The notes under the pieces are model-generated. The model did not search any database, was not told the DNA's origin, and saw only the letters and a program-made list of their open reading frames with translations. From Escherichia phage 121Q: a DNA stretch of 64,000 nt. The stretch lies in the sequence record NC_025447.1; one strand, written 5' to 3'. This document shows positions 9,537-49,293 of the stretch, piece after piece (the stretch's first letter is position 1; every line of letters begins with the position of its first letter). The position numbers and the translations under genes were made by a program.

Positions 9537-9800
9537 ATGAATATCCAAGATAGATTACAATTACTGTACACTATTGAACAGGCTGCTTTTGAACTTGTTC
9601 GAAAAATATCAGATGAACTACCTAAAGGAACTAAAGTTCGTGTACGTGAGATGAATTATTTTTCTGGAGTAATTGAAGAACAAGTACTAACAGTGAATAA
9701 AGTAACATACTATGAATCTGAGTTGTCTATTCAGTGTGAATCGGATGATGGATTAATATCATATTATGGAACTGATGTAGATATAGAGGTAATAAAATGA
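9537..9800 (+). CDS. hypothetical small protein
   Basis: ATG 9537 with RBS GGTGGA, directly after previous stop. Confidence 0.45.
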   Translation: MNIQDRLQLLYTIEQAAFELVRKISDELPKGTKVRVREMNYFSGVIEEQVLTVNKVTYYESELSIQCESDDGLISYYGTDVDIEVIK

Positions 9801-10939
9801 CCCTTTTACAAATATATGAAGATTTAATGCACTTATGTAATACAAACGATGCGTTTTTTTATGTGGATCATAAAAGTCCTGCTGGTGGTACGTATCGTGT
9901 ATTCAGTTATCGTCTAGCATCATACACTGATTTCATGCAACCAAATGCGTTGGAAACCCGTGGCTCTATGTGGGAAATTGATGAAGAAGGTGACATGATA
10001 CGTTGTGCAGCACGTACAATGAAAAAGTTCTTCAATGCTTACGAGAATCCTGCTACAATGTTCCCTGCTAACACCACATGCGATGACATTGCGGTAGTTA
10101 TGCCTAAGTTGGATGGTTCGATCATCAGTACTTATCGTGATAATGATGGTGAGATTCGTTGTAAATCACATACTGCATTGTATTCTGACCATGCGATTAA
10201 CAGTACTCGACTTATTAACGAGAACCAGAATTTGTATCAGTACATCGACGAAGCGGAACGTTTAGGTTACACAGTTAATATGGAGTATACAAGCCCAGAG
10301 TACCGAATTGTATTACCATATCAGGTAGAACAACTGTTTGTACTGAACGTTCGACATCGTGTGAGTGGTGAGTTGCTATGTGGTAAAGCACTACGTGATA
10401 AGTTTCCATGCCTTGCACAGTACAGTACTAATATGACCGGAAAAGATATTCATCACACTTTTCCGGTACGAAATACCTTCCGTGAAAGCGTGGAGGAAGT
10501 TCATAAAATGCTTGATATTGAGGGTTTTGTGTGCATCCTAAATAATGGGACAATGTGTAAAATAAAGACTGACTGGTACAGTTCATTACATCTTACAAAA
10601 GATAGTATTATTATTGATTCTCATTTATATGAAGCCGTATTAAATGGTTCAAGTGATGATTTAAAACAATTGTTCAGTACTGATGAATATGCTATGCAAA
10701 AGATATTAAGAATGGAACAATTGGTATTTTCGTGCTATAATGCATTACAAGATGAAGTAGAAAGCTTCGTCAAGGAACACAAGCACTTGGAGCGAAAGGA
10801 ATTCGCAATGAAGGTTCAGGAGTGTTTAACTAATGAACTGAATCGTCAGGGCTTGGCCTTTGCAATGTATAACAATAAGAAAGTTGATTACAAAGAGACT
10901 CTTATAAAATACATGAAAATTGTACTAAAGGATTTTTAG
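9797..10939 (+). CDS. rnlA: RNA ligase 1 (T4 Rnl1-like)
   Basis: 380 aa; recalled T4 Rnl1 similarity along the length (TYRVFSY, KLDGS nucleotidyl-lysine motif, IKTDWY, GSSDDLK). Confidence 0.85.
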   Translation: MTLLQIYEDLMHLCNTNDAFFYVDHKSPAGGTYRVFSYRLASYTDFMQPNALETRGSMWEIDEEGDMIRCAARTMKKFFNAYENPATMFPANTTCDDIAVVMPKLDGSIISTYRDNDGEIRCKSHTALYSDHAINSTRLINENQNLYQYIDEAERLGYTVNMEYTSPEYRIVLPYQVEQLFVLNVRHRVSGELLCGKALRDKFPCLAQYSTNMTGKDIHHTFPVRNTFRESVEEVHKMLDIEGFVCILNNGTMCKIKTDWYSSLHLTKDSIIIDSHLYEAVLNGSSDDLKQLFSTDEYAMQKILRMEQLVFSCYNALQDEVESFVKEHKHLERKEFAMKVQECLTNELNRQGLAFAMYNNKKVDYKETLIKYMKIVLKDF

Positions 10940-12035: not shown

Positions 12036-12968
12036 ATGCCAACTATTACACTGACAGTTGGATTACCTGGGTGTGGCAAAACCACATGGGCAGTTCAAGA
12101 AATTAAAAATGCCAAATCGAAGACTATCAACATTAACCGTGATGACATTCGAGAATCAATGGCAGGGTCACATGATGCATACAAATTCAACGACGCTAAT
12201 GAGCAGTACGTAACTAAAATGCAGTTCAGTGCAGCAAATTCAGCAGCAGAGAATGGTTGGAACATCATTGTGTCCGATACGAACCTTAAACAACATTTCC
12301 GTGATGAATGGAAACGTTGGGCTAAAGATAATGAATACGACTACAAAGAAAAGAACTTCTACGAAGATTTCGTACCTAATGAAGATCGTGGTGCAGATGT
12401 TCATGTTTTCTTTAAGATTAAAGAGTTCGTAAAACTTTGTAAGAAACGTAACCTCATGCGTGAGCGTTCAGTACAAGATAATATCATCGACACTATGGCA
12501 GATACGTACTATTATAGTAAGGCCATGCACATTGGTTACTATGGTAATTCACGAGAAGCTGCTGTTATCGTTGATATTGACGGTACTCTTGCTCATAAAT
12601 GGGGTCGCAATCCTTACGATGAAAGTACTGTTCTTCAGGATACACCAGATGAAGAAGTTATTTTGTCTATTATCGCTGAAGCAGTTTTTCATAAACGCAA
12701 GATTATCGTCATGAGTGGGCGTACTGAAGGGTGTCGTGCTGATACCGAACAGTGGCTTAAGAATTGGGGTATTCCTTACGATGCATTGTTTATGCGAGAC
12801 ATAGATGATAAACGTCCCGATGATGTTGTAAAATTCGACCTGTACATGAAAAATGTGGTTGATCATTACGATGTTAAAAAGGTTTATGATGACCGCGATC
12901 AAGTTGTATTCATGTGGCGTAAGCTACTTGGCTTGAAAGTAATGCAAGTTGCAGAAGGAAATTTCTAA
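12036..12968 (+). CDS. pseT: polynucleotide 5-prime kinase / 3-prime phosphatase (T4 PseT-like)
   Basis: P-loop GLPGCGKTT at N-terminus, HAD phosphatase motif DIDGTL, C-terminus QVAEGNF like T4 Pnk; 310 aa. Confidence 0.9.
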   Translation: MPTITLTVGLPGCGKTTWAVQEIKNAKSKTININRDDIRESMAGSHDAYKFNDANEQYVTKMQFSAANSAAENGWNIIVSDTNLKQHFRDEWKRWAKDNEYDYKEKNFYEDFVPNEDRGADVHVFFKIKEFVKLCKKRNLMRERSVQDNIIDTMADTYYYSKAMHIGYYGNSREAAVIVDIDGTLAHKWGRNPYDESTVLQDTPDEEVILSIIAEAVFHKRKIIVMSGRTEGCRADTEQWLKNWGIPYDALFMRDIDDKRPDDVVKFDLYMKNVVDHYDVKKVYDDRDQVVFMWRKLLGLKVMQVAEGNF

Positions 12969-16390: not shown

Positions 16391-17134
16391 ATGAAACATT
16401 TCTTAGAAGTAACCGTACCTGATGATAAAGATTTATACATTGTAGGTGATTTGCATGGTAATGGTAAACTATGGGATGCTACAGTGAAAGAATTTGGTAT
16501 TACACACAATGATTATGTTTTCAGTGTAGGTGATATTATCGACCGTGGAGAACAAAATTCAAAGCTCCTTTTTGAATTTTTGTTCGGAGAAAATCGTTAC
16601 ATGATTGCAGGTAATCATGAGATGATGTGCGTTGATTCGGAAACACTTCGAGATTGGTATCATTGTTGGATAAGTAATGGTGGTGATAAATTCCTTGATG
16701 AAGTTGGAGGAACAGGCATTCAATTCTTTCGTCAGTACTTAAAAGATCTCCCTATGATTATCCAAATCAATCACCGAGGCTTGAAGATTGGGTTAGTTCA
16801 TGCTGGAGTTCCGTTGGAATATACAACATGGGAACGATTTGTTAATGGGACAAAATCACTTAGTGCTGATATAATTGATAAGTGCTTGTGGGATAGGAAA
16901 ACATTCGATTATTGTAGAACGAATAATACCTATTATGCACCTAAGTTAGATGGAGTGCATTGTGTCTTTAGTGGACATACAGCAGTTACTGATCCACTCA
17001 TTTATGGTAATCGCATTTGGATTGATAGTCAGTTCTTGACGGGTGACTTAACTCTCGCTACTCCACAAAGTGGTGGGATGAGATACTTACGTAAAGAAAA
17101 AGATGAATACTCATTCAATCGTTTCAAAAGGTAA
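16391..17134 (+). CDS. Ser/Thr protein phosphatase-type metallophosphoesterase
   Basis: GDLHGN, GDIIDRG and GNHE motifs in canonical order. Confidence 0.75.
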   Translation: MKHFLEVTVPDDKDLYIVGDLHGNGKLWDATVKEFGITHNDYVFSVGDIIDRGEQNSKLLFEFLFGENRYMIAGNHEMMCVDSETLRDWYHCWISNGGDKFLDEVGGTGIQFFRQYLKDLPMIIQINHRGLKIGLVHAGVPLEYTTWERFVNGTKSLSADIIDKCLWDRKTFDYCRTNNTYYAPKLDGVHCVFSGHTAVTDPLIYGNRIWIDSQFLTGDLTLATPQSGGMRYLRKEKDEYSFNRFKR

Positions 17135-17419: not shown

Positions 17420-17647
17420 ATGAAAGTAATTCAAGTTATGGTAGAAAAATACCAAACTGAAGATGGTCGTATTTTTGATTCAGCTAAACAAGCTGAACAC
17501 CATGAACGTATTATTTCGGGTGCACGTAAAGTGTGTCCTACATGTAGTGGAACACAACAAGTACCGTCAGAAGATTACCGCAGCTTTTATGCTTGTCCAC
17601 ACTGTGATGGGAAAGGCTATGTAGAAAAACAAGAGGTATGGAAATGA
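17420..17647 (+). CDS. small zinc-finger protein
   Basis: CPTCSGT and CPHCDGKG motifs. Confidence 0.5.
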   Translation: MKVIQVMVEKYQTEDGRIFDSAKQAEHHERIISGARKVCPTCSGTQQVPSEDYRSFYACPHCDGKGYVEKQEVWK

Positions 17648-18057
17648 AATTGTATTGCTTAACTAATATGTACTGTCAAGGTGTCCAAGCTGGTATTCAA
17701 GCATTCCATGCTGGTGTTAAACTAATTAAAGAATATGAAGGTACTGCTTTCAGTACTATTATTGATGAATGGTACTATGAACACGAAACTATTGTAGTTC
17801 TAAATGCTGGTGGACATGATAAATTAAATTCTTATTATAACAACCTTAGCAAACAGGGGAAAGTTCCGTTTGCCAAGTTCAATGAAGCTGGATTGAATGA
17901 TGCTATTACCTGTGTAGCAGTACTGTGTACGTCTGAAATGATTGAAGACATGGCTGTTATGCGTATGAATCTTCCTGCTGGTGATCAACTAATGCAAGTA
18001 AAATATGGTGCATTGTTTGACACACTAAAAGCAATCAGTACAATGAGGACTATTTGA
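17638..18057 (+). CDS. hypothetical protein
   Basis: ORF in track. Confidence 0.45.
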   Translation: MEMKLYCLTNMYCQGVQAGIQAFHAGVKLIKEYEGTAFSTIIDEWYYEHETIVVLNAGGHDKLNSYYNNLSKQGKVPFAKFNEAGLNDAITCVAVLCTSEMIEDMAVMRMNLPAGDQLMQVKYGALFDTLKAISTMRTI

Positions 18058-19267: not shown

Positions 19268-20686
19268 ATGAGCATTTTAGCAATTCTTGAAAGCATTAAA
19301 AATACTAGCAGTACTCTGGGCAAAAAGGCTATTCTTGAACAAAATAAAGATAATGTAACTTTGCAAAAAGTTCTGAAATATACACTCGATCCTAGTATTG
19401 TAAGTGGGTATAAAAAGCTACCAGACGCTGATAACGTGTATCAACATATGACATTGGATGAAGCTATTGATAAACTAGAATGCATCTATAAGCGTGCATT
19501 GACGGGACATACAGGGCGTGATTTCATTGCTTCAGTACTAGGTAGTGTGAGTCCAGATGATGCTGAAGTTCTTCGTAAGATGCTTACAAAGAACTTAGAT
19601 TGTGGTATTCAAGAAAAGAACTGCAATGATGTATTTGGTAAAGGATTTATTAAAGATGAACCATATATGCGTTGTTCTTTGCTTGATAAAAAGACTGTTA
19701 AGAACATCAACTTCAAAGGTCATGGTTATGCTGTCTCCGAGGTCAAGATGGATGGTCAGTACTTAAACCATGTAGTCATTAATGGTGCTCTTACCTCTTC
19801 CTCCCGTAATGGTAAACTATATGACTTCTTAGGTTGTCGTGATGGTGAGATGGCAGGTCTTGCACATCAAATTCAAATGAATGATGAACGTTTTAGTAGT
19901 GGTGTCGTCTTTATGGGTGAAGGTCTAGTACTTGATAATGACGGTGAAACTATTCTTCCACGAACAACTGGTAATGGTATCATTCAGAAGGCTGGTAAAG
20001 ATAGTATTAGTCAGAATGAAGCAATGCGTACTGTATTTGTACTATGGGATGTTGTTCCGTATGATGCATTCTGTGAAGGTACATGGAATGTAAAACGTAA
20101 AGAACGTCGCGAACTTCTTGAATCTGCCATCAATGTATTGGGTAGTGATTTTGTACGTATGGTGAAATACCGTAAGGTTCAAAACATTAAAGAAGCATTT
20201 GAGTACAATAACGAACTCATGGATCAGGGTGAAGAAGGATCAGTACTGAAATGTGAAGATGGTATCTGGAAATCACATACATCTCCTAAGCAGTTGAAAG
20301 TAAAACTAAAAATGCAATTGGATTTGCGTATTGTTGGTTTCAACGAAGGTGAAGGTAAGCGTAAAGGTTCACTTGGTTCTTTACAACTTGAAAGTGCATG
20401 TGGCACACTGAAGGTAAATGTAGGAACAGGTATCCGTGAAAAAGATGCAGAGTGGACATTCAAAACCATTTGGGAACGAATGCAAGAACTAATTGGTAAA
20501 GTCGTTACCGTTGAGTGCAATGAGATTGTAATCGACAAGCGTACAGGTGAACCATCACTATTTTTACCAGTGTTTATTGAATTTAGATTTGACAAAAACA
20601 CTTGTGACGATTATACTCGTATCTTAGAAATTCGTGATAGTGCTGTTGAGGTGTTCTCTAACAGTATTATTGAAGCACTTAGCTAA
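19268..20686 (+). CDS. ATP-dependent DNA ligase (T4 gp30-like)
   Basis: N-terminus ILEQNKDN like T4 ligase; KMDG adenylation motif; 472 aa. Confidence 0.85.
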   Translation: MSILAILESIKNTSSTLGKKAILEQNKDNVTLQKVLKYTLDPSIVSGYKKLPDADNVYQHMTLDEAIDKLECIYKRALTGHTGRDFIASVLGSVSPDDAEVLRKMLTKNLDCGIQEKNCNDVFGKGFIKDEPYMRCSLLDKKTVKNINFKGHGYAVSEVKMDGQYLNHVVINGALTSSSRNGKLYDFLGCRDGEMAGLAHQIQMNDERFSSGVVFMGEGLVLDNDGETILPRTTGNGIIQKAGKDSISQNEAMRTVFVLWDVVPYDAFCEGTWNVKRKERRELLESAINVLGSDFVRMVKYRKVQNIKEAFEYNNELMDQGEEGSVLKCEDGIWKSHTSPKQLKVKLKMQLDLRIVGFNEGEGKRKGSLGSLQLESACGTLKVNVGTGIREKDAEWTFKTIWERMQELIGKVVTVECNEIVIDKRTGEPSLFLPVFIEFRFDKNTCDDYTRILEIRDSAVEVFSNSIIEALS

Positions 20687-20705: not shown

Positions 20706-21497
20706 ATGAAATTTGTTGTAACATCTGACGTACACGGTGGAACTGATTACCTCCATAGCGGTGATTACAGTGATGTAGTACTGATCATTGCTGGGGACTT
20801 CGATGAAGTTAAACGCAGTCGTTACCGTACTGGTATCGAATCACTGTGTAAGCAGTTCAAAAATGTAGTACTGGTTCCAGGTAATCACGAATATTATGGT
20901 TCCAATATCATCAAAACGCATAAAGTACTATCCAATATGCAGGATGAGATTCCTAATTTTATCTTTTTGCAAAACAAATTTGTATGGCTGGATGGAGTAC
21001 TGCTTGTTGGTAGTACTCTGTGGACAGACTTCGATAAAGGTAATTCTTTGACGAAGTTTGATGCTCGTCAGAAGATGAACGATTACAAACATATCCGTCA
21101 TGGAACAACATCAGAGCCTTGGCGTAAAAAACTGACACCTGATGATACTGAGTTTATGCATCACAAAGATAAACAATTTATCAAAAATTCTATTGACACA
21201 GTTCGCTTTATGCATGATAATGATTTCAAGGTCATCGTGATTACTCATCACGCACCAAGTTATCAAAGTGTTTCACCAAAATATAAAAATGATTCACTGA
21301 ATGGTTGTTACTGTTCCGATATGGATCAGTACATTGAAGATTTGGGTGCTGATGTTTGGATTCATGGTCATGTTCATAGTAGCTTTGACTACCACATTGG
21401 TAAGACACGTATCATTTGTAATCCACGAGGCTATGAATCGTATAGTGGATCTTGTGAGAATTTTGATTACAATCCTAAATTTGTATTTGAAATTTAA
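20706..21497 (+). CDS. calcineurin-like metallophosphoesterase
   Basis: SDVHGG, GDFD, GNHEYY and GHVH motifs; RBS GGAGG upstream of ATG 20706. Confidence 0.7.
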   Translation: MKFVVTSDVHGGTDYLHSGDYSDVVLIIAGDFDEVKRSRYRTGIESLCKQFKNVVLVPGNHEYYGSNIIKTHKVLSNMQDEIPNFIFLQNKFVWLDGVLLVGSTLWTDFDKGNSLTKFDARQKMNDYKHIRHGTTSEPWRKKLTPDDTEFMHHKDKQFIKNSIDTVRFMHDNDFKVIVITHHAPSYQSVSPKYKNDSLNGCYCSDMDQYIEDLGADVWIHGHVHSSFDYHIGKTRIICNPRGYESYSGSCENFDYNPKFVFEI

Positions 21498-26419: not shown

Positions 26420-27028
26420 ATGAAAAGACTATGGCTTGAGGTAGTACAAGCAGTAATGCTTCTGATGTTGATAAATTTTCCAGCCAGTGCTGGTGTTGAA
26501 AGTAAAAATGTGATAAAGTACAATCCTGAAACACGTAATGTATATTTCATCTCAGATATTACGGATGGGTCACTAAAGCGTATGATGGAGTTGTATGATA
26601 AAGAACACTATGATACCATTACCATCACATCGCCAGGTGGTGATTTTGATGCTGGGATTAAAATGGCAAACTTCGTTAGAGACAATGGTATAAATTTAAT
26701 TGTTTCTAGGTATTGCAACTCAGCATGTACTGTGGTATTCTTCAGTGTAGCTTTTGAAAAGCGATACATGATAAATCGCTCAGTACTGGGACTTCATAAC
26801 ATTTCTATTAAAAGTAATGTTAAAGACGGTGATAATTCTTTTGTATCAGTTAGGCAGCTATCAACTTTTACTGAAGAAATGGCAACTAAAGTAGGTTTTC
26901 TATTTACACTATATTCTGCAAATGGAATTCCACCAGACGTTCTATATAAAGTTAGCCGTTCGCGTGGTGAAGATGTTGTAATATTAACAAAACCAGAACT
27001 GGTTTTTTACGGTTCAGTCAAACAATAA
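26420..27028 (+). CDS. secreted ClpP/SppA-fold (peptidase-like) protein
   Basis: N-terminal signal-peptide-like segment; ITITSPGGDFDAG...SRYCNSACT resembles ClpP/S49 core. Confidence 0.45.
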   Translation: MKRLWLEVVQAVMLLMLINFPASAGVESKNVIKYNPETRNVYFISDITDGSLKRMMELYDKEHYDTITITSPGGDFDAGIKMANFVRDNGINLIVSRYCNSACTVVFFSVAFEKRYMINRSVLGLHNISIKSNVKDGDNSFVSVRQLSTFTEEMATKVGFLFTLYSANGIPPDVLYKVSRSRGEDVVILTKPELVFYGSVKQ

Positions 27029-27098: not shown

Positions 27099-27359
27099 AT
27101 GACAAACATCCAAAATTTGACATCTATTATTTTTTATGCTACAGTAGTGATGTATATTACTGTACTTTTCCTAACAGTTTTCATTTACAAAGATTACAAA
27201 AATGGCTTTATTGATAACACAACAATGAAGTTCAATTCAAAGTTTGAAGCAATAATTTATTATGTTCTGGCAACATCATATTTGGTGTGTCTAATGTTAT
27301 TAGGTACATTGATTTATATTTTATATACAACTTTATTTGCAATTGGAGCTATTTTATGA
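27099..27359 (+). CDS. small membrane protein
   Basis: two hydrophobic segments. Confidence 0.45.
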   Translation: MTNIQNLTSIIFYATVVMYITVLFLTVFIYKDYKNGFIDNTTMKFNSKFEAIIYYVLATSYLVCLMLLGTLIYILYTTLFAIGAIL

Positions 27360-27952
27360 CATGTATCATTGCACACACTGATGGTGTAACTTCTTTTATT
27401 GCAGGGGACAAACTGGGAAGTAACGGGTTCACAAAGTCCGTTCAAACTGAGCCTAAAGTATTTGAGAAAGAATTCATTAAAATCAATGATGATGCTGGTT
27501 TGACCCGTACAAAAGAAATTATGGCGATTGGTTACACCACATCATTCCGTATGGGTCAACTTCTTACTTACAGTTTGAATCTACCACAGCAAGATGCAAA
27601 TGAGACGTTTCCACAGTACTTAGTACTGAAAGTTATTCCTATTATTCGTCAAATGTTCAAAGAGGAATGGGGTTCTCGTGATCCTTCACAAGAAGTAGGT
27701 GGTGGACAGTTCATCATTCTTCACAATCATACAATTTATGAAGTTCAAGAAGATTTTTCAGTTCTTCAACCGAAAACACGAATCACCGCCGTAGGTAGCG
27801 GAACATATCATGCTATTGCAGCAATGCAAGCATATATTGAAGTTGAAAATGAATCAAAAGTGCCACTACATGAACGCATCAAATCAATTTTTAAAATTGT
27901 CAGTGATAATGTAACTAGTGTAAGTGCCGAGTTTGATGTTTTAAAGTATTAA
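27356..27952 (+). CDS. HslV/proteasome beta-subunit-like Ntn-hydrolase peptidase
   Basis: Thr directly after initiator Met; IAGD and AVGSGTYHAIAAMQA resemble HslV IAGD and GSGG...A signatures. Confidence 0.55.
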   Translation: MTCIIAHTDGVTSFIAGDKLGSNGFTKSVQTEPKVFEKEFIKINDDAGLTRTKEIMAIGYTTSFRMGQLLTYSLNLPQQDANETFPQYLVLKVIPIIRQMFKEEWGSRDPSQEVGGGQFIILHNHTIYEVQEDFSVLQPKTRITAVGSGTYHAIAAMQAYIEVENESKVPLHERIKSIFKIVSDNVTSVSAEFDVLKY

Positions 27953-28174: not shown

Positions 28175-28927
28175 ATGATATCAGAAAAATTTATAAGTAA
28201 TGAAGGTAAAAAAAGATTACTGATTATATCTGGTGCAGGACTTTCAGTCGAAAGTGGGATGGAACCTTTTCGATTTGATGATGGTTTGTGGGATACATTT
28301 AAAATTAATGATGTATGTAACATTGCTAGTTTAACTACAAAATATCATGTTGTTCATTCTTTCTATAATACATTGCGTGTAAAATTGGGACAATGCGAAC
28401 CAAATGCAATGCATTATTTTATAAAATCGTTAGAAGAACAATATGGTGATTGCTTCCTTCATATGACTTCTAACATGGACGATCTTTATACTCGTATTGG
28501 TGGTCATGAGCTTAAACTTCATGGAAACTTGTGCGAAGTTATTGAAAATTATAGTATCAATTCTGATGATTATAATGTTATTAACTGCGGATACGAACCA
28601 TACATACCAAAACATGATGTTTTTGCTAAACCAAATGTGGTAATGATTGGAGAATATCATCGTTATGTTGATGGTATACGCTTACCAATTTACGAAGAAC
28701 GAAATAATGTGTTGAAATCTCTTAATGAAAATGATACAGTTATTGTAATTGGTAGTAGCGATACAGTACTAGTATGGTCGAGATTAGCAGCAGCATTACC
28801 ATGTTATAGTGTTAATGTTAACATTCGTAAAAATGATAATGATTTTTTGTTTAATGAAAAAGTTATCAAGCCAGCAACCAAAGCAATACCACATCTAGAG
28901 ACTATAATTAAGGAACGTATGAAATGA
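28175..28927 (+). CDS. Sir2 (sirtuin)-family NAD-binding protein
   Basis: GAGLS..SGM..FR, TSNMDDL, LHG and VIGSSDTV match Sir2 motifs. Confidence 0.6.
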   Translation: MISEKFISNEGKKRLLIISGAGLSVESGMEPFRFDDGLWDTFKINDVCNIASLTTKYHVVHSFYNTLRVKLGQCEPNAMHYFIKSLEEQYGDCFLHMTSNMDDLYTRIGGHELKLHGNLCEVIENYSINSDDYNVINCGYEPYIPKHDVFAKPNVVMIGEYHRYVDGIRLPIYEERNNVLKSLNENDTVIVIGSSDTVLVWSRLAAALPCYSVNVNIRKNDNDFLFNEKVIKPATKAIPHLETIIKERMK

Positions 28928-29475
28928 GTGTTAAAGAAGTTCCCTTTGGTGAATATGGCTCACGTGCAAATTTTGTATTTTGTTATTTCTTTGCAAGAAA
29001 ATGTAACCCTTACAAAAACTATGAGTTGAATGATATACCAGAAGTAAATTTAGTTTTACTACAATTACGATGGGATGGTCTTCTTGGTGGATGTGGTGGA
29101 ACCGTAGAAAGTACTGATATCTCACTAGAAGATGCGTTGCGTCGTGAAGTTCAAGAAGAAATGGATTACAATATTTTTGTTTCCCATCTTCGACCACTCA
29201 AAACTTTTGAAATTTACCCAGGTGCAAACAGTCATAGTTTTAGCTATGAAGTAAGCTATGACGAGTTGAAACACATTAGAGATGGATACACTAATGCTAA
29301 ACATGCGAGTGCTGAAGTTGCTGGTGTAAATTTATGTCATATTTCTCGTTATTCTAAGGGACAAAATCGAGAAGCGGGATATAATAATCTTATGACACAG
29401 AACTTCATCGGTACAGCAAAACAAGAATTGGAGTATCTGGTTCAAAAAGAAAACTTACTAATTAGTTATCTATAG
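28924..29475 (+). CDS. Nudix-like hydrolase (atypical Nudix box)
   Basis: GGCGGTVE...RREVQEEM resembles the Nudix signature but spacing is imperfect. Confidence 0.4.
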   Translation: MSVKEVPFGEYGSRANFVFCYFFARKCNPYKNYELNDIPEVNLVLLQLRWDGLLGGCGGTVESTDISLEDALRREVQEEMDYNIFVSHLRPLKTFEIYPGANSHSFSYEVSYDELKHIRDGYTNAKHASAEVAGVNLCHISRYSKGQNREAGYNNLMTQNFIGTAKQELEYLVQKENLLISYL

Positions 29476-29484
29476 GAGTTTAAC

Positions 29485-29805
29485 ATGTCTTACGCAATGT
29501 TTTTGGATGATATTCGTGATGCAAATCTATATTATCCAAACCAAGATATGGTGGTATGTCGTGACTTTAAAAGTGCATGTGAATATGTTATTGAAAATGG
29601 AATTCCAGCATTTGTATCATTCGACCATGACTTGGGTGATGTGAGCGAAGACGAAAAGACTGGATATTCTTTTGCTAAGTTTCTTATTGATTATATGTTT
29701 GATAATAATATTAAAGAACCGTTTGAGTACTTTGTTCACAGTAGTAATCCTGTTGGTAAAATTAATATTGAAACATACTTAAACAATGGATTTAACGCAT
29801 TATGA
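29485..29805 (+). CDS. hypothetical protein
   Basis: ORF in track with RBS. Confidence 0.45.
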   Translation: MSYAMFLDDIRDANLYYPNQDMVVCRDFKSACEYVIENGIPAFVSFDHDLGDVSEDEKTGYSFAKFLIDYMFDNNIKEPFEYFVHSSNPVGKINIETYLNNGFNAL

Positions 29806-30104
29806 TTCAAACACACATCAAAAGTCTTATTTGTACTGTTCTGTTAGGTGCAGGAGTTCTTTGGTTCGGACAGTATCACGAGAACACTAAGCGTACCAAC
29901 ATTCACTACAATACCGCAGAAGTTGTTAGTTTAGGACAATGTAGCGAGTCCAAATGTTCATTCATGTATAAAACCCAAAGTGGTGAAGTACGTAATGGAC
30001 TATCAAGAGAACCAGTTTCAATTGGTCAACTTGTTTACCAGGAGTGCTGGGAAGAAAAGGTTCGAGGTTCACGTTGCTATGTTGAATACGAACCAAATAT
30101 GTAA
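29802..30104 (+). CDS. membrane-anchored small protein
   Basis: N-terminal hydrophobic segment. Confidence 0.45.
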   Translation: MIQTHIKSLICTVLLGAGVLWFGQYHENTKRTNIHYNTAEVVSLGQCSESKCSFMYKTQSGEVRNGLSREPVSIGQLVYQECWEEKVRGSRCYVEYEPNM

Positions 30105-30164
30105 TAATCCGAGTCAATAACATTAGTCGAGTACAAGGATGTACTCATAACTCAAGGATGTTTT

Positions 30165-31604
30165 ATGAAAAAATATACAATTGACACAAACGTACTACTA
30201 TCTGACCCTAATGCATCTATTGCTTTTGATGGTGCTGCAATCATTCTACCATTTACAGTACTGGAAGAATTAGATTCGATTAAGAGTCGTAATGTAGATG
30301 TTTCACGCGATGCTCGTGTTGCTATTCGTAACATTGAAGCAATTATTGCAGATGCATCACATGACGAGATTAGTAGTACTGGTGTTAATATTGCTGATGT
30401 TCATACCAATATGAATCCTGATAGCAAATTGTTTGTTATTACAAACGAAGAAGCTGAGGCACTAATTCGTACTAAAGGTACAGAAGAGAAAGTTCAAACC
30501 CTTCTCAAAAGTACTGTACCTGATGATAAAATCATTCTGGTAGCTTTAGCAACAGAATCAGTACTGGTAACTCGTGATATCAACATGCGTATCAAAGCAC
30601 TAAGTTATGGTGTCGAGGTACAAGATTATCGCCATGATATTGTTATTGGTGATAGTGATTTGATTCACATTGGTCAACACCATCTGGAAATCAATTTTTG
30701 GGAAGTATACAGCAACTTAACCAATACTAATATTCAATCCGAACAAGTTGGTCGTCGTTTGTATCATTACATTTCTAAAAGCTTGATTGAACATCTGCTT
30801 CCACAAAATCTATGCATCGGTGATTATCTATATGATGATGCTGACGTATTATTTGTGTACGAAGGACAATCAGCAATTGAGGAAGATGATGGAACACTAA
30901 CACCAGAAGATATTTTGGTATTCCAAGACATTGGACAATCAGTGTCTTTACGTGCTAAAGTATGGGATATTAAAGCAAAGAATATCCAACAAGCACTCGC
31001 CATCAACAGTATTCTCGATCCTGATGTACATCTAACAGTACTGCTAGGTTCTGCTGGTACTGGTAAAACACTAATTACAATTGCTACTGCATTAGAATTA
31101 GTACTGGAAAAACGTAAATACGACCGAATCATCTTCTCTAAAACTCAAGACTCACAGTTTGAAGATATTGGTTTCTTGCCAGGTTCAGAAGCAGAAAAAG
31201 TGATTCCATTCTGTGGAGCCGCGATTGATGCGTTAGAGTTTCTTCATAAAGATGATGCCAATCCACAAGGTAGTATTGAAGAGATTATGAAACGTAATGT
31301 TATTCAATTTAAAGCACTAAACTTTGTACGTGGACGTTCATTCACCAACACTATTCTAGTAGTTGATGAATTCCAAAACATTACACCTGCACAAGCAAAA
31401 ACCATCTTGACACGAGCAGGGTTAAACTGTAAAGTAGTAATTATGGGTAACTTGAGTCAGATTGACAGTAAGTTTATTAGTCCTGTTAACAGTGGTTTGA
31501 CATATGTAACTGAGAAGTTTAAAGACTGGGCAGGTTGTCGTGTCATCGAACTAGAAGGTGTTGTTCGTTCACCACTGGCTGAATTTGCTGAAGAAAATAT
31601 GTAA
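30165..31604 (+). CDS. phoH: PhoH-like ATPase with N-terminal PIN-like domain
   Basis: Walker A LLGSAGTGKT and Walker B VVDEFQN; 479 aa. Confidence 0.8.
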   Translation: MKKYTIDTNVLLSDPNASIAFDGAAIILPFTVLEELDSIKSRNVDVSRDARVAIRNIEAIIADASHDEISSTGVNIADVHTNMNPDSKLFVITNEEAEALIRTKGTEEKVQTLLKSTVPDDKIILVALATESVLVTRDINMRIKALSYGVEVQDYRHDIVIGDSDLIHIGQHHLEINFWEVYSNLTNTNIQSEQVGRRLYHYISKSLIEHLLPQNLCIGDYLYDDADVLFVYEGQSAIEEDDGTLTPEDILVFQDIGQSVSLRAKVWDIKAKNIQQALAINSILDPDVHLTVLLGSAGTGKTLITIATALELVLEKRKYDRIIFSKTQDSQFEDIGFLPGSEAEKVIPFCGAAIDALEFLHKDDANPQGSIEEIMKRNVIQFKALNFVRGRSFTNTILVVDEFQNITPAQAKTILTRAGLNCKVVIMGNLSQIDSKFISPVNSGLTYVTEKFKDWAGCRVIELEGVVRSPLAEFAEENM

Positions 31605-31861: not shown

Positions 31862-31966
31862 TTCATTTGAAGCAATATTGTGGAGTTCTTAATAAATACT
31901 TTTATAAGAATAATAATACTTTTTATTAAATTAAAAAGAACTCCATGTGTTATTTCAGTTTTTCGT

Positions 31967-31991
31967 CCCTGTCTTTTGGCAGGGATTTTTT
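31967..31991 (+). terminator. rho-independent terminator
   Basis: CCCTG...CAGGG stem plus TTTTTT. Confidence 0.6.
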
Positions 31992-47662: not shown

Positions 47663-48064
47663 ATGACTACAGTTGATGATATCTATAGCACTATACGCAA
47701 TATGAGTACAGATAGAAAAGTATTTGGCGATAAAGAAAAATCTAAGTGTTATGGTATTGATTCTTTTGATATAATTTCTTATGAGTACAATACAAGTGGA
47801 AATAGTTCACTGAATATCGTCTGTCCTCGTGACCCAGAAAATAATTTTATGTATGTTGAAATTAATAATGATGGAATGTTTTTTACAAAAGTTTTCAAAG
47901 GTGGAATTAATTACGAACCTATTGAATGTATGAATGAAGAAACTTTCTTTCAAGAAGATACAATTATCAATTTAGGTTTTAGTTTTGATGATTATAAAAC
48001 ATTAGAACATGACTTTAATCGTTATTATAATGGTTTCTTAAAGGAGTTAACAATTTATCTATGA
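47663..48064 (+). CDS. hypothetical protein
   Basis: ORF in track. Confidence 0.45.
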   Translation: MTTVDDIYSTIRNMSTDRKVFGDKEKSKCYGIDSFDIISYEYNTSGNSSLNIVCPRDPENNFMYVEINNDGMFFTKVFKGGINYEPIECMNEETFFQEDTIINLGFSFDDYKTLEHDFNRYYNGFLKELTIYL

Positions 48065-49293
48065 ATAACCAATATATTGAACAAACAATAGTGAAACACT
48101 TGGCTGGGTCACAAGCCTACGGAACCAGTACACCTGAAAGTGATACTGATTATCGTGGTATTTTTCTTGCTAATAAAGAATTTATTCTTACACCCTTCTA
48201 TAAGGTCAAAGAGGTAGCTGATAAAAGCGAAGAAGATACTAAATTCTATGAGTTGAATCAGTATTTAAAATTATACACTGAAGCTAACCCTAATATTCTT
48301 GAATCACTTTGGGTTGAACCTGAACACATTGTTGAAAGTACTGAAATTTATGACTATCTTCGTTCATTTAACCAAAAACTTCTTAGTTCCAAGATTGCAT
48401 TTTCATATACTGGTTATGCATATAATCAGATTAAGCGTATGACAAATCATCACGGTTGGATGGATAAAGAGCGTATTGCTGAAAAACGATTAAATGAGAT
48501 TTTAGAAGAACACCCTGTCGATGAGGTTCTTGCGTGGATGTATGATTCATTCCCACAGTATCTTGTTGAACGTTTAGATACATCCAACTTACATCCATTT
48601 AATGCTAAAAAGATTGATTTTGAAAAATATATGCGTGATACATCATTGCAGTTAGTTTCGAAAAATCCATTAAAGCAATATCATTTCGTAAGATTAGTGC
48701 ATAACTACACTACTGAAAAAATTCTTGATCGTGATTTCAATTTATTGAATTTTAATAATGGTTATGAACTAATTCATTACGGAGAAAACATTTTTGCGAT
48801 TGTTAAGAATCCTAATGAAAGCACTATTAACCATGATGGTTCATTGCGTTATTTTTCAAAAGAACGTAGTACTGAAGAGTTGAAAAACAAACCAGAACTA
48901 ATTGTCAAATTTAACGAAAAAGAATATCAGGAAAATAGTGAGAATAGGAAAAGTTATCATAAATGGAAAGAAAATCGTAATGCCAAACGTGCTATTTTAG
49001 AATCACAACACGGATACGATTGTAAACATGCTATGCACACAATCCGACTTTTGAATAGTGCAGAAGAAGCATTACAAAGTGGAATTATTCAAGTTAAACG
49101 ACCAGATGCACAAATGTTGATGGATATTCGTAATGGTAAATGGAAGTATGAAGAAGTATTAGAATATTTCGATGATAAAGTACAATACATTCGTGATGTT
49201 CTATATAAGAAATCAGTACTTCCTAAAAAACCAAACATCAAGTTAGCATCAAAAATTATCATTGATATTAGAGAAATGCAATGGTATAAGTAA
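48061..49293 (+). CDS. Pol-beta-superfamily nucleotidyltransferase
   Basis: N-terminal GSQAYGTSTPESDTDYRGIF matches the hG[GS]...D.D signature. Confidence 0.5.
   Translation: MNNQYIEQTIVKHLAGSQAYGTSTPESDTDYRGIFLANKEFILTPFYKVKEVADKSEEDTKFYELNQYLKLYTEANPNILESLWVEPEHIVESTEIYDYLRSFNQKLLSSKIAFSYTGYAYNQIKRMTNHHGWMDKERIAEKRLNEILEEHPVDEVLAWMYDSFPQYLVERLDTSNLHPFNAKKIDFEKYMRDTSLQLVSKNPLKQYHFVRLVHNYTTEKILDRDFNLLNFNNGYELIHYGENIFAIVKNPNESTINHDGSLRYFSKERSTEELKNKPELIVKFNEKEYQENSENRKSYHKWKENRNAKRAILESQHGYDCKHAMHTIRLLNSAEEALQSGIIQVKRPDAQMLMDIRNGKWKYEEVLEYFDDKVQYIRDVLYKKSVLPKKPNIKLASKIIIDIREMQWYK

Follow-up and report, generated by a model that had tools for sequence, protein, structure and literature searches.

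Comparative genomics has placed a family of phage-encoded sirtuins in several recurrent gene neighbourhoods, for which Iyer, Burroughs, Anantharaman and Aravind proposed a model of RNA repair dependent on nicotinamide adenine dinucleotide (NAD; Viruses 2022, PMC9503650, section 3.7.3). In the published model, the sirtuin strips 2'-phosphates from RNA in the manner of KptA/Tpt1, and associated phosphoesterases and a Nudix hydrolase process the resulting ADP-ribose 1''-2'' cyclic phosphate (PMC9503650). Their type 1 neighbourhood, with Serratia phage BF as its prototype, comprises a sirtuin, a Nudix hydrolase, a cREC (cyclic-phosphate-processing receiver-like) protein and a PIN-domain protein; the others join the sirtuin to a T4-like RNA ligase, cREC, a kinase and MazG (V5/Mydo) or to a 'Swiss-army-knife' HAD phosphatase (SP15/T5-like), and a KptA-Nudix fusion is found in Bodo saltans virus (PMC9503650). 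The type 1 model is a prediction, cREC is experimentally uncharacterised according to the same source, and our literature search found no experimental study or published assay for either the phage sirtuin clade or cREC. Here we describe the corresponding locus in Escherichia phage 121Q (NC_025447.1), of which a stretch of 64,000 nucleotides, referred to as the window, was analysed. A contiguous, co-directional block at 28175-31604 encodes a sirtuin, a Nudix hydrolase, cREC, a small membrane protein and a PIN-PhoH protein. These are the orthologues of type 1 in the same order, but in a reduced version, with no 2H gene, with Nudix and cREC as separate proteins and with neither NadM nor NadV upstream. 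We tentatively favour the reading that the sirtuin, which lacks a zinc ribbon, moves ADP-ribose to an anionic oxygen acceptor, RNA 2'-phosphate being the most plausible, and that cREC and then the Nudix process the by-product. The association of sirtuin and Nudix is itself already known, as it is annotated in close relatives and published as a conserved predicted system; the window contributes just a reduced variant of a known block. Some 20 PBECO4-type (Asteriusvirus) jumbo coliphages are 94-95.5% identical to the window region, and their records already label the pair 'Sir2 NAD-dependent deacetylase' (or 'cobB') and 'nudix hydrolase'; over its first 24 kb, the window is 97.3% identical to phages G17 and Sharanji.

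The first gene of the block (28175..28927, plus strand) encodes a single-domain protein of 250 residues that matches Pfam SIR2 (PF02146; E = 4.6e-20, 72.8 bits against a gathering score of 24) over model positions 1-178 of 180, and phage family phrog_2162 at E = 1e-77. Its closest relative of solved structure by sequence is E. coli CobB (6rxj; E = 1e-21, ~28% identity). An AlphaFold2 (AF2) model, computed from an alignment assembled from window and database proteins, is confident (predicted local distance difference test (pLDDT) 91.8, predicted template modelling score (pTM) 0.90), and its 50 best Foldseek neighbours in the PDB are, without exception, classical deacylase sirtuins (CobB, Af1, SIRT5 and Sir2Tm), with CobB as the top fold match (TMt up to 0.86, E = 1e-16). 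The sirtuin thus resembles deacylase sirtuins, not defence NAD glycohydrolases (NADases). An initial annotation, made from the sequence alone, had described a Sir2-like open reading frame (ORF) here followed by a Nudix-like one, and comparisons by hidden Markov model (HMM), PDB sequence and fold agree with both assignments; the HMM searches placed neither ORF in an unrelated family. The features on which that annotation relied, namely a Rossmann GAGLS signature (20-24), an LHG motif (115-117) and only two cysteines where a zinc ribbon is expected, are likewise all present.

To define the clade, we aligned 19-28 members, the first alignment also taking in CobB and Sir2Tm. Of the reference sequences used for alignment, those of CobB and human NUDT16 agree with PDB alignments, and that of T. 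maritima Sir2 (Sir2Tm) served solely to locate the canonical motifs. The recognisable motifs of the window sirtuin are G20-A-G-L-S24, F32-R33, C48 within a clade-specific VCNI, Y64...R68, S99-N100-M101-D102 and L115-H116-G117. Invariant or nearly so across the clade are G20, G22, S27, G28, C48-N49, Y64, R68, N100, D102/D103 and H116-G117, and, further along, G139-Y140, K152-P153, G159-E160 and G193. The catalytic set (G20/G22, N100, D102, H116 and G159-E160) is kept in 27-28 members and R33 in most, whereas canonical QNID has Ser99 in place of its Gln in the window protein and S, T or A at this position throughout the clade. In the region of the zinc ribbon, the window protein has exactly two cysteines (C120 and C138), and these are not conserved, since relatives at 60-72% identity carry Lys, Thr or Leu and Val or Ile at the two positions; a four-Cys ribbon is found in none of the aligned clade members, and no ribbon Cys is conserved among them. 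The AF2 model nevertheless retains beta-strands at this place (121-124, 134-137 and 151-153). The sirtuin thus belongs to a distinct phage clade that derives from CobB, has no zinc ribbon and retains an intact catalytic centre. By tblastn, 986 phage records contain homologues, among them 372 of Escherichia, 287 of Salmonella, 131 of Klebsiella and 50 of Vibrio; T5-like, rV5-like and RaK2-like phages are included.

Two cases depart from this pattern. The sirtuin of RaK2 and K64-1 (K64-1 at L004:3764-4501 in our numbering of loci; RaK2 at L011; representative P0013) has GNG in place of GAG and has lost both FR and the following GLW, while N-x-D and HG are still kept; the Alcyoneusvirus protein may be inactive or altered. 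In one IMG/VR contig (L023:5863-6623), the sirtuin is split into ORFs 5863-6111 and 6108-6623, which could reflect a frameshift, a pseudogene or a sequencing error.

With CobB (PDB 1S5P, 6RXJ), a class III sirtuin protein deacylase, the phage sirtuin has in common the motifs GAGxS, FR, N-x-D, HG, GxS and an FGE-like one, as well as the Tyr in the Y-x-x-R region. The protein could accordingly be a CobB-like lysine deacylase that acts on host or phage proteins during takeover, with the Nudix hydrolysing O-acyl-ADP-ribose. Every residue needed for deacylation chemistry is present, the nearest relatives and the confident model point in the same direction, and GenBank records annotate the gene in this way. 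Moreover, O-acetyl-ADP-ribose is hydrolysed by some Nudix enzymes, and ADP-ribose conjugates are substrates of NUDT16. We nonetheless consider a deacylase unlikely. Unlike CobB, the phage clade has lost the zinc-ribbon cysteines throughout, which form part of the small domain responsible for the shape of the peptide cleft; the QNID Gln is always replaced; the VCNI motif and an insertion of eight residues after the GE motif are present; and the CobB equivalog models score less than one third of their cut-offs (NF001755, 92.7 against 318 bits; NF040867, 85.7 against 320 bits). Deacylation also leaves unexplained the fusion of Nudix with cREC, the PIN-PhoH gene and the RNA ligase, kinase and HAD-SAK contexts described below.

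From the scarcity of cysteines, the initial annotation had suggested an NADase rather than a deacetylase. Zinc-ribbon loss is indeed common to defence-type SIR2 NADases. That step does not hold for this protein, however, in which GAGxS, FR, Asn100, Asp102 and His116 are kept; an NADase activity is conceivable from the sequence, but no specific similarity speaks for it. No PADLOC defence-type SIR2 family matched at E ≤ 0.01, and no defence-type SIR2 NADase is among the top 50 Foldseek matches in the PDB. Unlike ThsA, DSR1/2, SIR2-HerA and SIR2-pAgo, the protein has neither a defence-profile match nor a sensor or partner domain. With no PADLOC family and deacylases as its only fold neighbours, we rejected an identity as a defence-type SIR2 NADase.

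The second gene (28924..29475, plus strand) encodes a Nudix hydrolase of 183 residues of the Nudt16/X29 type. It matches Pfam Nudt16-like (PF22327; E = 1.3e-18, 67.9 bits against a gathering score of 27) as well as the generic NUDIX model, and its closest solved relatives are Xenopus X29 and human NUDT16 (E = 3e-12 to 3e-11). The extended Nudix box, GGTVESTDISLEDALRREVQEE, closely parallels that of human NUDT16, with a near-identical SLEDxLxRExxEE and an intact REx2EE. Residues R74, E75, E78, E79 and E131 align with R75, E76, E79, E80 and E136 of human NUDT16 and are invariant in 13-17 relatives; the enzyme should therefore be active. By contrast, the base-contacting H24, F57 and Q170 of human NUDT16 are F, G and E in the phage protein, which, unlike NUDT16 and X29, is linked or fused to cREC. 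Activities known in the NUDT16/X29 family include decapping of U8 small nucleolar RNA, hydrolysis of inosine diphosphate (IDP) and hydrolysis of ADP-ribose conjugates.

This Nudix is rare in phages, with 73 records, nearly all from RaK2/PBECO4-type jumbo phages. An exhaustive profile search of 1.84 billion cluster representatives recovered no more than 489 relatives at E ≤ 1e-3, of which 166 reach 1e-10; the majority stand alone as proteins of ~180 residues. Longer members are fused to cREC (in jumbo phages), Ham1/ITPase, HD domains or a HIGH nucleotidyltransferase. Because these partners are heterogeneous, the substrate is not fixed by family membership. The distant members with Ham1/ITPase, HD_4 or HIGH nucleotidyltransferase fusions (database representatives P0109, P0106, P0156 and P0190) suggest roles in sanitising the nucleotide pool or in NAD metabolism in those other lineages. 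A pattern scan of bacterial genomes for the Nudix, a method that reaches only close relatives, returned none; word-indexed protein searches made in the course of the analysis returned close jumbo-phage relatives only. The 2022 survey placed most phage Nudix proteins in the T4 NudE or NadM clades, with Nudt16 unmentioned (Iyer et al. 2022, PMC9503650); the Nudt16/X29 affinity found here is a small addition to that account.

The remaining genes of the block follow closely. The cREC protein (29485..29805, plus strand; 106 residues; phrog_1479) matches Pfam cREC_REC (PF20274, E = 1.8e-22) with conserved FLDDIR, SFDHDLG and HSSNPVG motifs, and its gene begins 9 nt after the Nudix stop with its own AGGAG ribosome-binding site. 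Its stop overlaps, as ATGA, the start of a gene (29802..30104, plus strand) for a small membrane protein of 100 residues (phrog_14661 'membrane protein', E = 4e-44), which has one N-terminal hydrophobic segment, several Cys and no Pfam family. The last gene (30165..31604, plus strand) encodes a predicted RNA nuclease/helicase of 479 residues of the PIN-PhoH (PhoH2) type (PIN_4, E = 8e-20; PhoH, E = 7e-44), for which the NCBIfam model 'RNA 5'-3' helicase PhoH2' remains below its cut-off. Downstream, a terminator-like hairpin with a 9-bp stem and a T-run (31965..31986, plus strand), found by a consensus scan only, is the first such site after the block and possibly marks the end of the transcription unit; the scan as a whole was weak, with 5 sites against 2.5 expected in shuffled sequence.

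We scanned 17 related loci, representing 16 distinct phages or contigs, with HMMs built from the block proteins; these loci come from the genomes of Serratia BF, Klebsiella K64-1, Cronobacter GAP32 and Salmonella Munch and from IMG/VR contigs. The order sirtuin, Nudix, cREC, membrane protein, PIN-PhoH is the same in the window and in all 17 (PIN-PhoH, and the 100-residue protein between it and cREC, in 18 of 18 loci), and the BF locus aligns with the window block at 43-46% identity. In 11 of the 17 (10 distinct), Nudix and cREC form a single fused polypeptide, as confirmed by Pfam for gp113 of Serratia BF and for one database representative. The fusion implies that both act on one substrate. 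Together with the zinc-less architecture of the sirtuin, the invariant linkage to Nudix and cREC suggests chemistry other than protein deacetylation. The NAD and ADP-ribose theme of the initial annotation stands: the next gene is cREC, and sister genera carry NadM and NadV directly upstream.

Translational coupling of sirtuin and Nudix had been read from the overlap of their ORFs. The overlap is real, the sirtuin stop TGA (28925-28927) and the Nudix ATG (28924-28926) sharing ATGA, with a Shine-Dalgarno-like AAGGA 9 nt upstream. Such overlaps are generic in this genome, however. A script listed 21 ATGA candidates on the window's plus strand, of which at least one, an internal ATG at 12711, is an artefact. 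In phage E9.1, 19 of 103 adjacent gene pairs overlap in this way within the annotated stretch that is syntenic with the window. The overlap alone is thus no evidence of special functional coupling. The real evidence is the conserved linkage, the tight junctions in relatives and the fusion. In 13 of the 17 relatives, the spacing from sirtuin to Nudix ranges from a 1-nt overlap to a 12-nt gap (1-nt overlaps as TAGTG in K64-1 and TAATG in GAP32; a 9-nt gap in BF), and in the four Munch-type loci ~375 nt lie between the two genes, occupied in Munch itself by an inserted gene.

These junctions bear on the possibility that the Nudix works independently of the sirtuin, either decapping RNA 5' ends (NAD or flavin adenine dinucleotide caps, or triphosphates) to feed decay by PIN-PhoH or sanitising inosine di- and triphosphates, in which case adjacency would be inherited synteny. 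Membership in the X29/NUDT16 family of decapping enzymes speaks for independence, as do the PIN-PhoH gene two genes downstream and the Ham1/ITPase or HD fusions of distant members, which point to nucleotide house-cleaning in those lineages. However, the recurrent fusion partner in jumbo phages is cREC, not Ham1 or HD, and the sirtuin-Nudix spacing is tight in most relatives. Moreover, phage V18 has a different enzyme, annotated as a nucleotide pyrophosphohydrolase, directly after Sir2, at the same position; this replacement suggests that the pairing of sirtuin and pyrophosphatase is itself under selection. We regard an independent Nudix as quite improbable.

Outside the jumbo phages, the sirtuin clade is linked to RNA end-healing genes in unrelated phages, which supports a role in RNA 2'-phosphate removal. 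We re-verified the Mydo context as RNA ligase, cREC (E = 2e-17), P-loop kinase, one further gene, Sir2 and DNA ligase; in the T5-like phage AKFV33, HAD_SAK_2 (E = 2e-20) lies three genes after Sir2. The genome arm represented by the window is itself rich in RNA-repair functions, which we count for the same reading: T4-type Rnl1 (9797-10939), T4-type Pnkp with kinase and HAD phosphatase (12036-12968), a PTH2-like peptidyl-tRNA hydrolase (17644-18057) and an RlaP-family RNA-repair nucleotidyltransferase (48061-49293). Two calcineurin-like phosphoesterases (16391-17134 and 20706-21497) and an ATP-dependent DNA ligase (19268-20686) are also encoded in the window.

The family assignment, catalytic residues, gene order, fusion and end-healing linkage are observed; from them we infer an acceptor, products and a biological role as follows. 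The sirtuin would bind NAD+, expel nicotinamide and pass the ADP-ribosyl group to an oxygen nucleophile, for which the 2'-phosphate of cleaved or healed RNA is the best-supported candidate. In the ADP-ribosyl-2'-phosphate intermediate, His116 would activate a ribose hydroxyl that attacks the phosphate, as in Tpt1/KptA, yielding 2'-OH RNA and ADP-ribose 1''-2'' cyclic phosphate. In the next step, the cyclic phosphate would be opened or removed by cREC; cleavage of the pyrophosphate by the Nudix would give AMP and ribose phosphates, and PIN-PhoH would act on the RNA. Y64 and R68, invariant in the clade, correspond to the region of the Tyr/Arg pair with which class III sirtuins bind anionic acyl groups, and could here hold a phosphate. 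The proposed likeness to Tpt1/KptA lies in the use of NAD, in a two-step attack at C1'' and then by the ribose hydroxyl, and in linked phosphoesterases and a pyrophosphatase; in the Tpt1/KptA pathway, ADP-ribose 1''-2'' cyclic phosphate is cleared by a 2H cyclic phosphodiesterase (CPDase) and by Macro/Nudix proteins. The folds are unrelated, a Rossmann sirtuin as opposed to the ADP-ribosyltransferase (ART) fold of Tpt1/KptA, and no neighbourhood shared with phage KptA genes was found in the two jumbo phages compared. It is conceivable, though doubtful, that the phage sirtuin clade is a non-orthologous replacement of Tpt1/KptA, with Nudix and cREC forming a new disposal route for ADP-ribose 1''-2'' cyclic phosphate.

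The distribution of KptA is consistent with such a replacement. KptA was found in 98 phage records, and those listed are either jumbo phages of 250-307 kb from Erwinia, Dickeya, Klebsiella and Serratia or phages of Clostridioides, Listeria and Bacillus. None of the ten genera named for KptA is Escherichia, Salmonella or Vibrio, which together hold 709 of the 986 sirtuin records; the two distributions are largely complementary.

Several points weigh against removal of an RNA 2'-phosphate. The complementarity of KptA and sirtuin could simply reflect phage phylogeny, and the KptA neighbourhoods of jumbo phages FBKp24 and Ea35-70 have no recognisable genes in common with the block, their flanking proteins being without significant Pfam matches. 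The nearest relatives of the sirtuin, in sequence and in structure, are protein deacylases, and no sirtuin is known to use an RNA phosphate as its substrate. To our knowledge, the Pnkp and Rnl1 pathway leaves no 2'-phosphate, so that a Tpt1-like step is not obviously needed in a phage that already encodes both enzymes. Finally, the '2H' gene of sister genera, which counted as RNA-repair evidence in 2022, fits Pfam Acb1 better and adjoins NAD salvage genes, which suggests counter-defence.

This gene encodes 148 residues and directly precedes the sirtuin in 15 of the 17 related loci (L003:3007-3453 and L005:3000-3446, with equivalents in L006 and L012-L023); it is absent from the window and from RaK2/K64-1. 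It matches Pfam Acb1, an anti-CBASS (cyclic oligonucleotide-based anti-phage signalling system) phosphodiesterase, at E = 4e-15 in BF and 6e-16 in GAP32 (56-59 bits against a gathering score of 27), whereas it stays under the threshold of the generic 2'-5' RNA ligase family. The two catalytic HxT/S motifs are kept in 10 of 10 loci aligned. Further upstream, NadV (nicotinamide phosphoribosyltransferase, Nampt) lies within a few kb of the sirtuin in all 17 related loci, preceded, wherever the flank reaches far enough, by a NadM-type protein that combines nicotinamide mononucleotide (NMN) adenylyltransferase (NMNAT) and Nudix domains (Pfam CTP_transf_like and NUDIX). NadM and NadV constitute NARP2, an experimentally proven counter to NAD-depleting defences (bioRxiv 10.1101/2024.02.11.579819). 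Since the Acb1-like gene and NARP2 both lie upstream in sister loci, the ancestral order was NARP2, Acb1-like gene, sirtuin, Nudix/cREC, membrane protein, PIN-PhoH, an arrangement that resembles an anti-defence island.

In a counter-defence role, the Nudix and cREC (with the Acb1-like protein where present) would destroy nucleotide or ADP-ribose immune signals or toxic ADP-ribose derivatives, and the part of the sirtuin would be to ADP-ribosylate or deacylate a component of host defence, or to process a signal derived from NAD. There is a precedent in RyDEP, an enzyme that degrades signals and is encoded within a NARP1 operon (2026 preprint, PMC13232231), and the 2022 survey argues that phage domains that process ADP-ribose mostly target soluble ADP-ribose derivatives (Iyer et al., PMC9503650). 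The match to Acb1, the position directly downstream of NadV and this precedent give counter-defence added weight relative to the RNA-repair model of 2022. On the other side, Mydo, V18 and T5-like phages keep the sirtuin clade among genes of RNA-repair type, with no recognisable anti-defence neighbours, and the window keeps the five-gene core without NARP2 or the Acb1-like gene, so the core does not depend on them. Adjacency within a large syntenic arm is weak evidence, and we know of no role in signal degradation for an NAD-consuming sirtuin. On balance we consider counter-defence a rather unlikely explanation, and continue to favour, tentatively, ADP-ribose transfer to an anionic oxygen acceptor.

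The lack of NARP2 in the sequence searched sets this lineage apart from its sister genera. In every sister genus examined, NARP2, the phage NAD reconstitution pathway of Nampt and Nmnat (NadV/NatV in KVP40), lies directly upstream of the orthologous block. By tblastn and custom HMMs, NadV, NadM and 2H/Acb1-like genes were found nowhere in the 64-kb window, and neither NadV, NadM nor an Acb1-like gene was found in PBECO4 at 1-50, 57-76 and 95-145 kb, with 145-348 kb outside the search. The 60 top-ranking matches to NadV and the 45 to NadM contain no Asteriusvirus record, although every other RaK2-type genus is represented, and 'Escherichia' records with any NadM match number 10, against ~30 records of Asteriusvirus type. 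The initial annotation had proposed that NAD-related metabolites are not only consumed but also rebuilt; this fits the sister genera but not the present lineage, for which the window and the PBECO4 segments covered yielded neither NadV nor NadM.

The rebuilding step had been assigned to the ORF at 2503-3036. This ORF has the HxGH motif as described (H16-R-G-H19, invariant or nearly so, like S136-S-T-Q-M-R141) and belongs to the HIGH superfamily of nucleotidyltransferases (phrog_3041/395 'cytidyltransferase'), but its identification as an NMN adenylyltransferase was not borne out. It scores 19.8 bits with TIGR00482 against a cut-off of 112, is far under cut-off on NMNAT and cytidylyltransferase models alike, remains under the gathering score of Pfam CTP_transf_like, and has no match among PDB sequences with either the single sequence or a family profile. 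Its AF2 model (pLDDT 90) has a Rossmann-like fold to which NadD (8aih, E = 5e-6) and phosphopantetheine adenylyltransferase (PPAT; 4nah, E = 9e-6) fit equally, both with TM ~0.6. Homologues occur in 564 phage records, mostly cyanomyophages (375 Synechococcus), where they are annotated 'cytitidyltransferase', and also in RaK2-type jumbo phages of host genera whose phages carry NadM (Klebsiella, Salmonella and Erwinia). The ORF lies 25 kb from the sirtuin and is not part of the block; an NMNAT activity is possible but unsupported. We also tried it as the clade's NMNAT orthologue and rejected this, as the similarity to K64-1 NadM is confined to the N-terminal motif (E = 0.01) and the family also occurs in RaK2-type jumbo phages of the host genera that carry NadM; it is thus not the Nmnat of NARP2. 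A Dam-type N6-adenine methyltransferase gene (1985-2506; Pfam Dam, E = 7e-32) overlaps its start by ATGA.

Taken as a whole, a cycle in which the sirtuin drains NAD as a glycohydrolase, the Nudix cleaves ADP-ribose as a pyrophosphatase and ORF 2503-3036 restores NAD as an NMN adenylyltransferase is very improbable. The HxGH and SSTQMR motifs, a top fold match to the nicotinate mononucleotide adenylyltransferase 8aih and the pairing of the block with NadM and NadV in sister genera speak for it. Against this stand the missing NADase likeness of the sirtuin, the distance and equivocal fold of the ORF and the occurrence of its family in phages of NadM-carrying host genera; a drain on NAD without salvage genes would, moreover, harm the phage.

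The sirtuin clade is present in roughly a thousand sequenced phages, T5-like model phages included, and databases call it 'NAD-dependent deacetylase'. Should either Tpt1-like chemistry or counter-defence prove true, it would represent a new type of reaction for the sirtuin family and a new node in the NAD-centred arms race between phages and bacteria. As a replacement for Tpt1, it would be the first sirtuin to remove an RNA 2'-phosphate with NAD+; in counter-defence, the block would be an uncharacterised enzymatic system acting on NAD-derived immune signals, which would be equally novel. The window offers a minimal, naturally pared-down block, without NARP2 or the Acb1-like gene; as the phage can be grown on E. 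coli K-12, this block is convenient for deletion and biochemical experiments.

Scans of the 64-kb window for tRNA genes and Rfam families gave zero matches, and a promoter scan was uninformative in this AT-rich DNA (44 sites seen, 35 expected). Just upstream of the window sirtuin lie genes for a ClpP-like protease (26420-27028; weak Pfam and NCBIfam matches, phrog_26024) and an HslV-family peptidase-like protein (27287-27952; phrog_1040), which stand where sister genera carry the NadM, NadV and Acb1-like genes. A WGR-domain gene found downstream in PBECO4 has no long ORF at the syntenic position of the window. The PBECO4 record (L024:25669-28598) also contains a cluster encoding a macro-domain protein, a glutaredoxin, a second small Nudix, which is not Nudt16-like by HMM, and a CCA-adding tRNA nucleotidyltransferase. 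By our estimate, this cluster would lie ~3-5 kb past the 3' end of the window, and it places further ADP-ribose- and RNA-related genes near the block.

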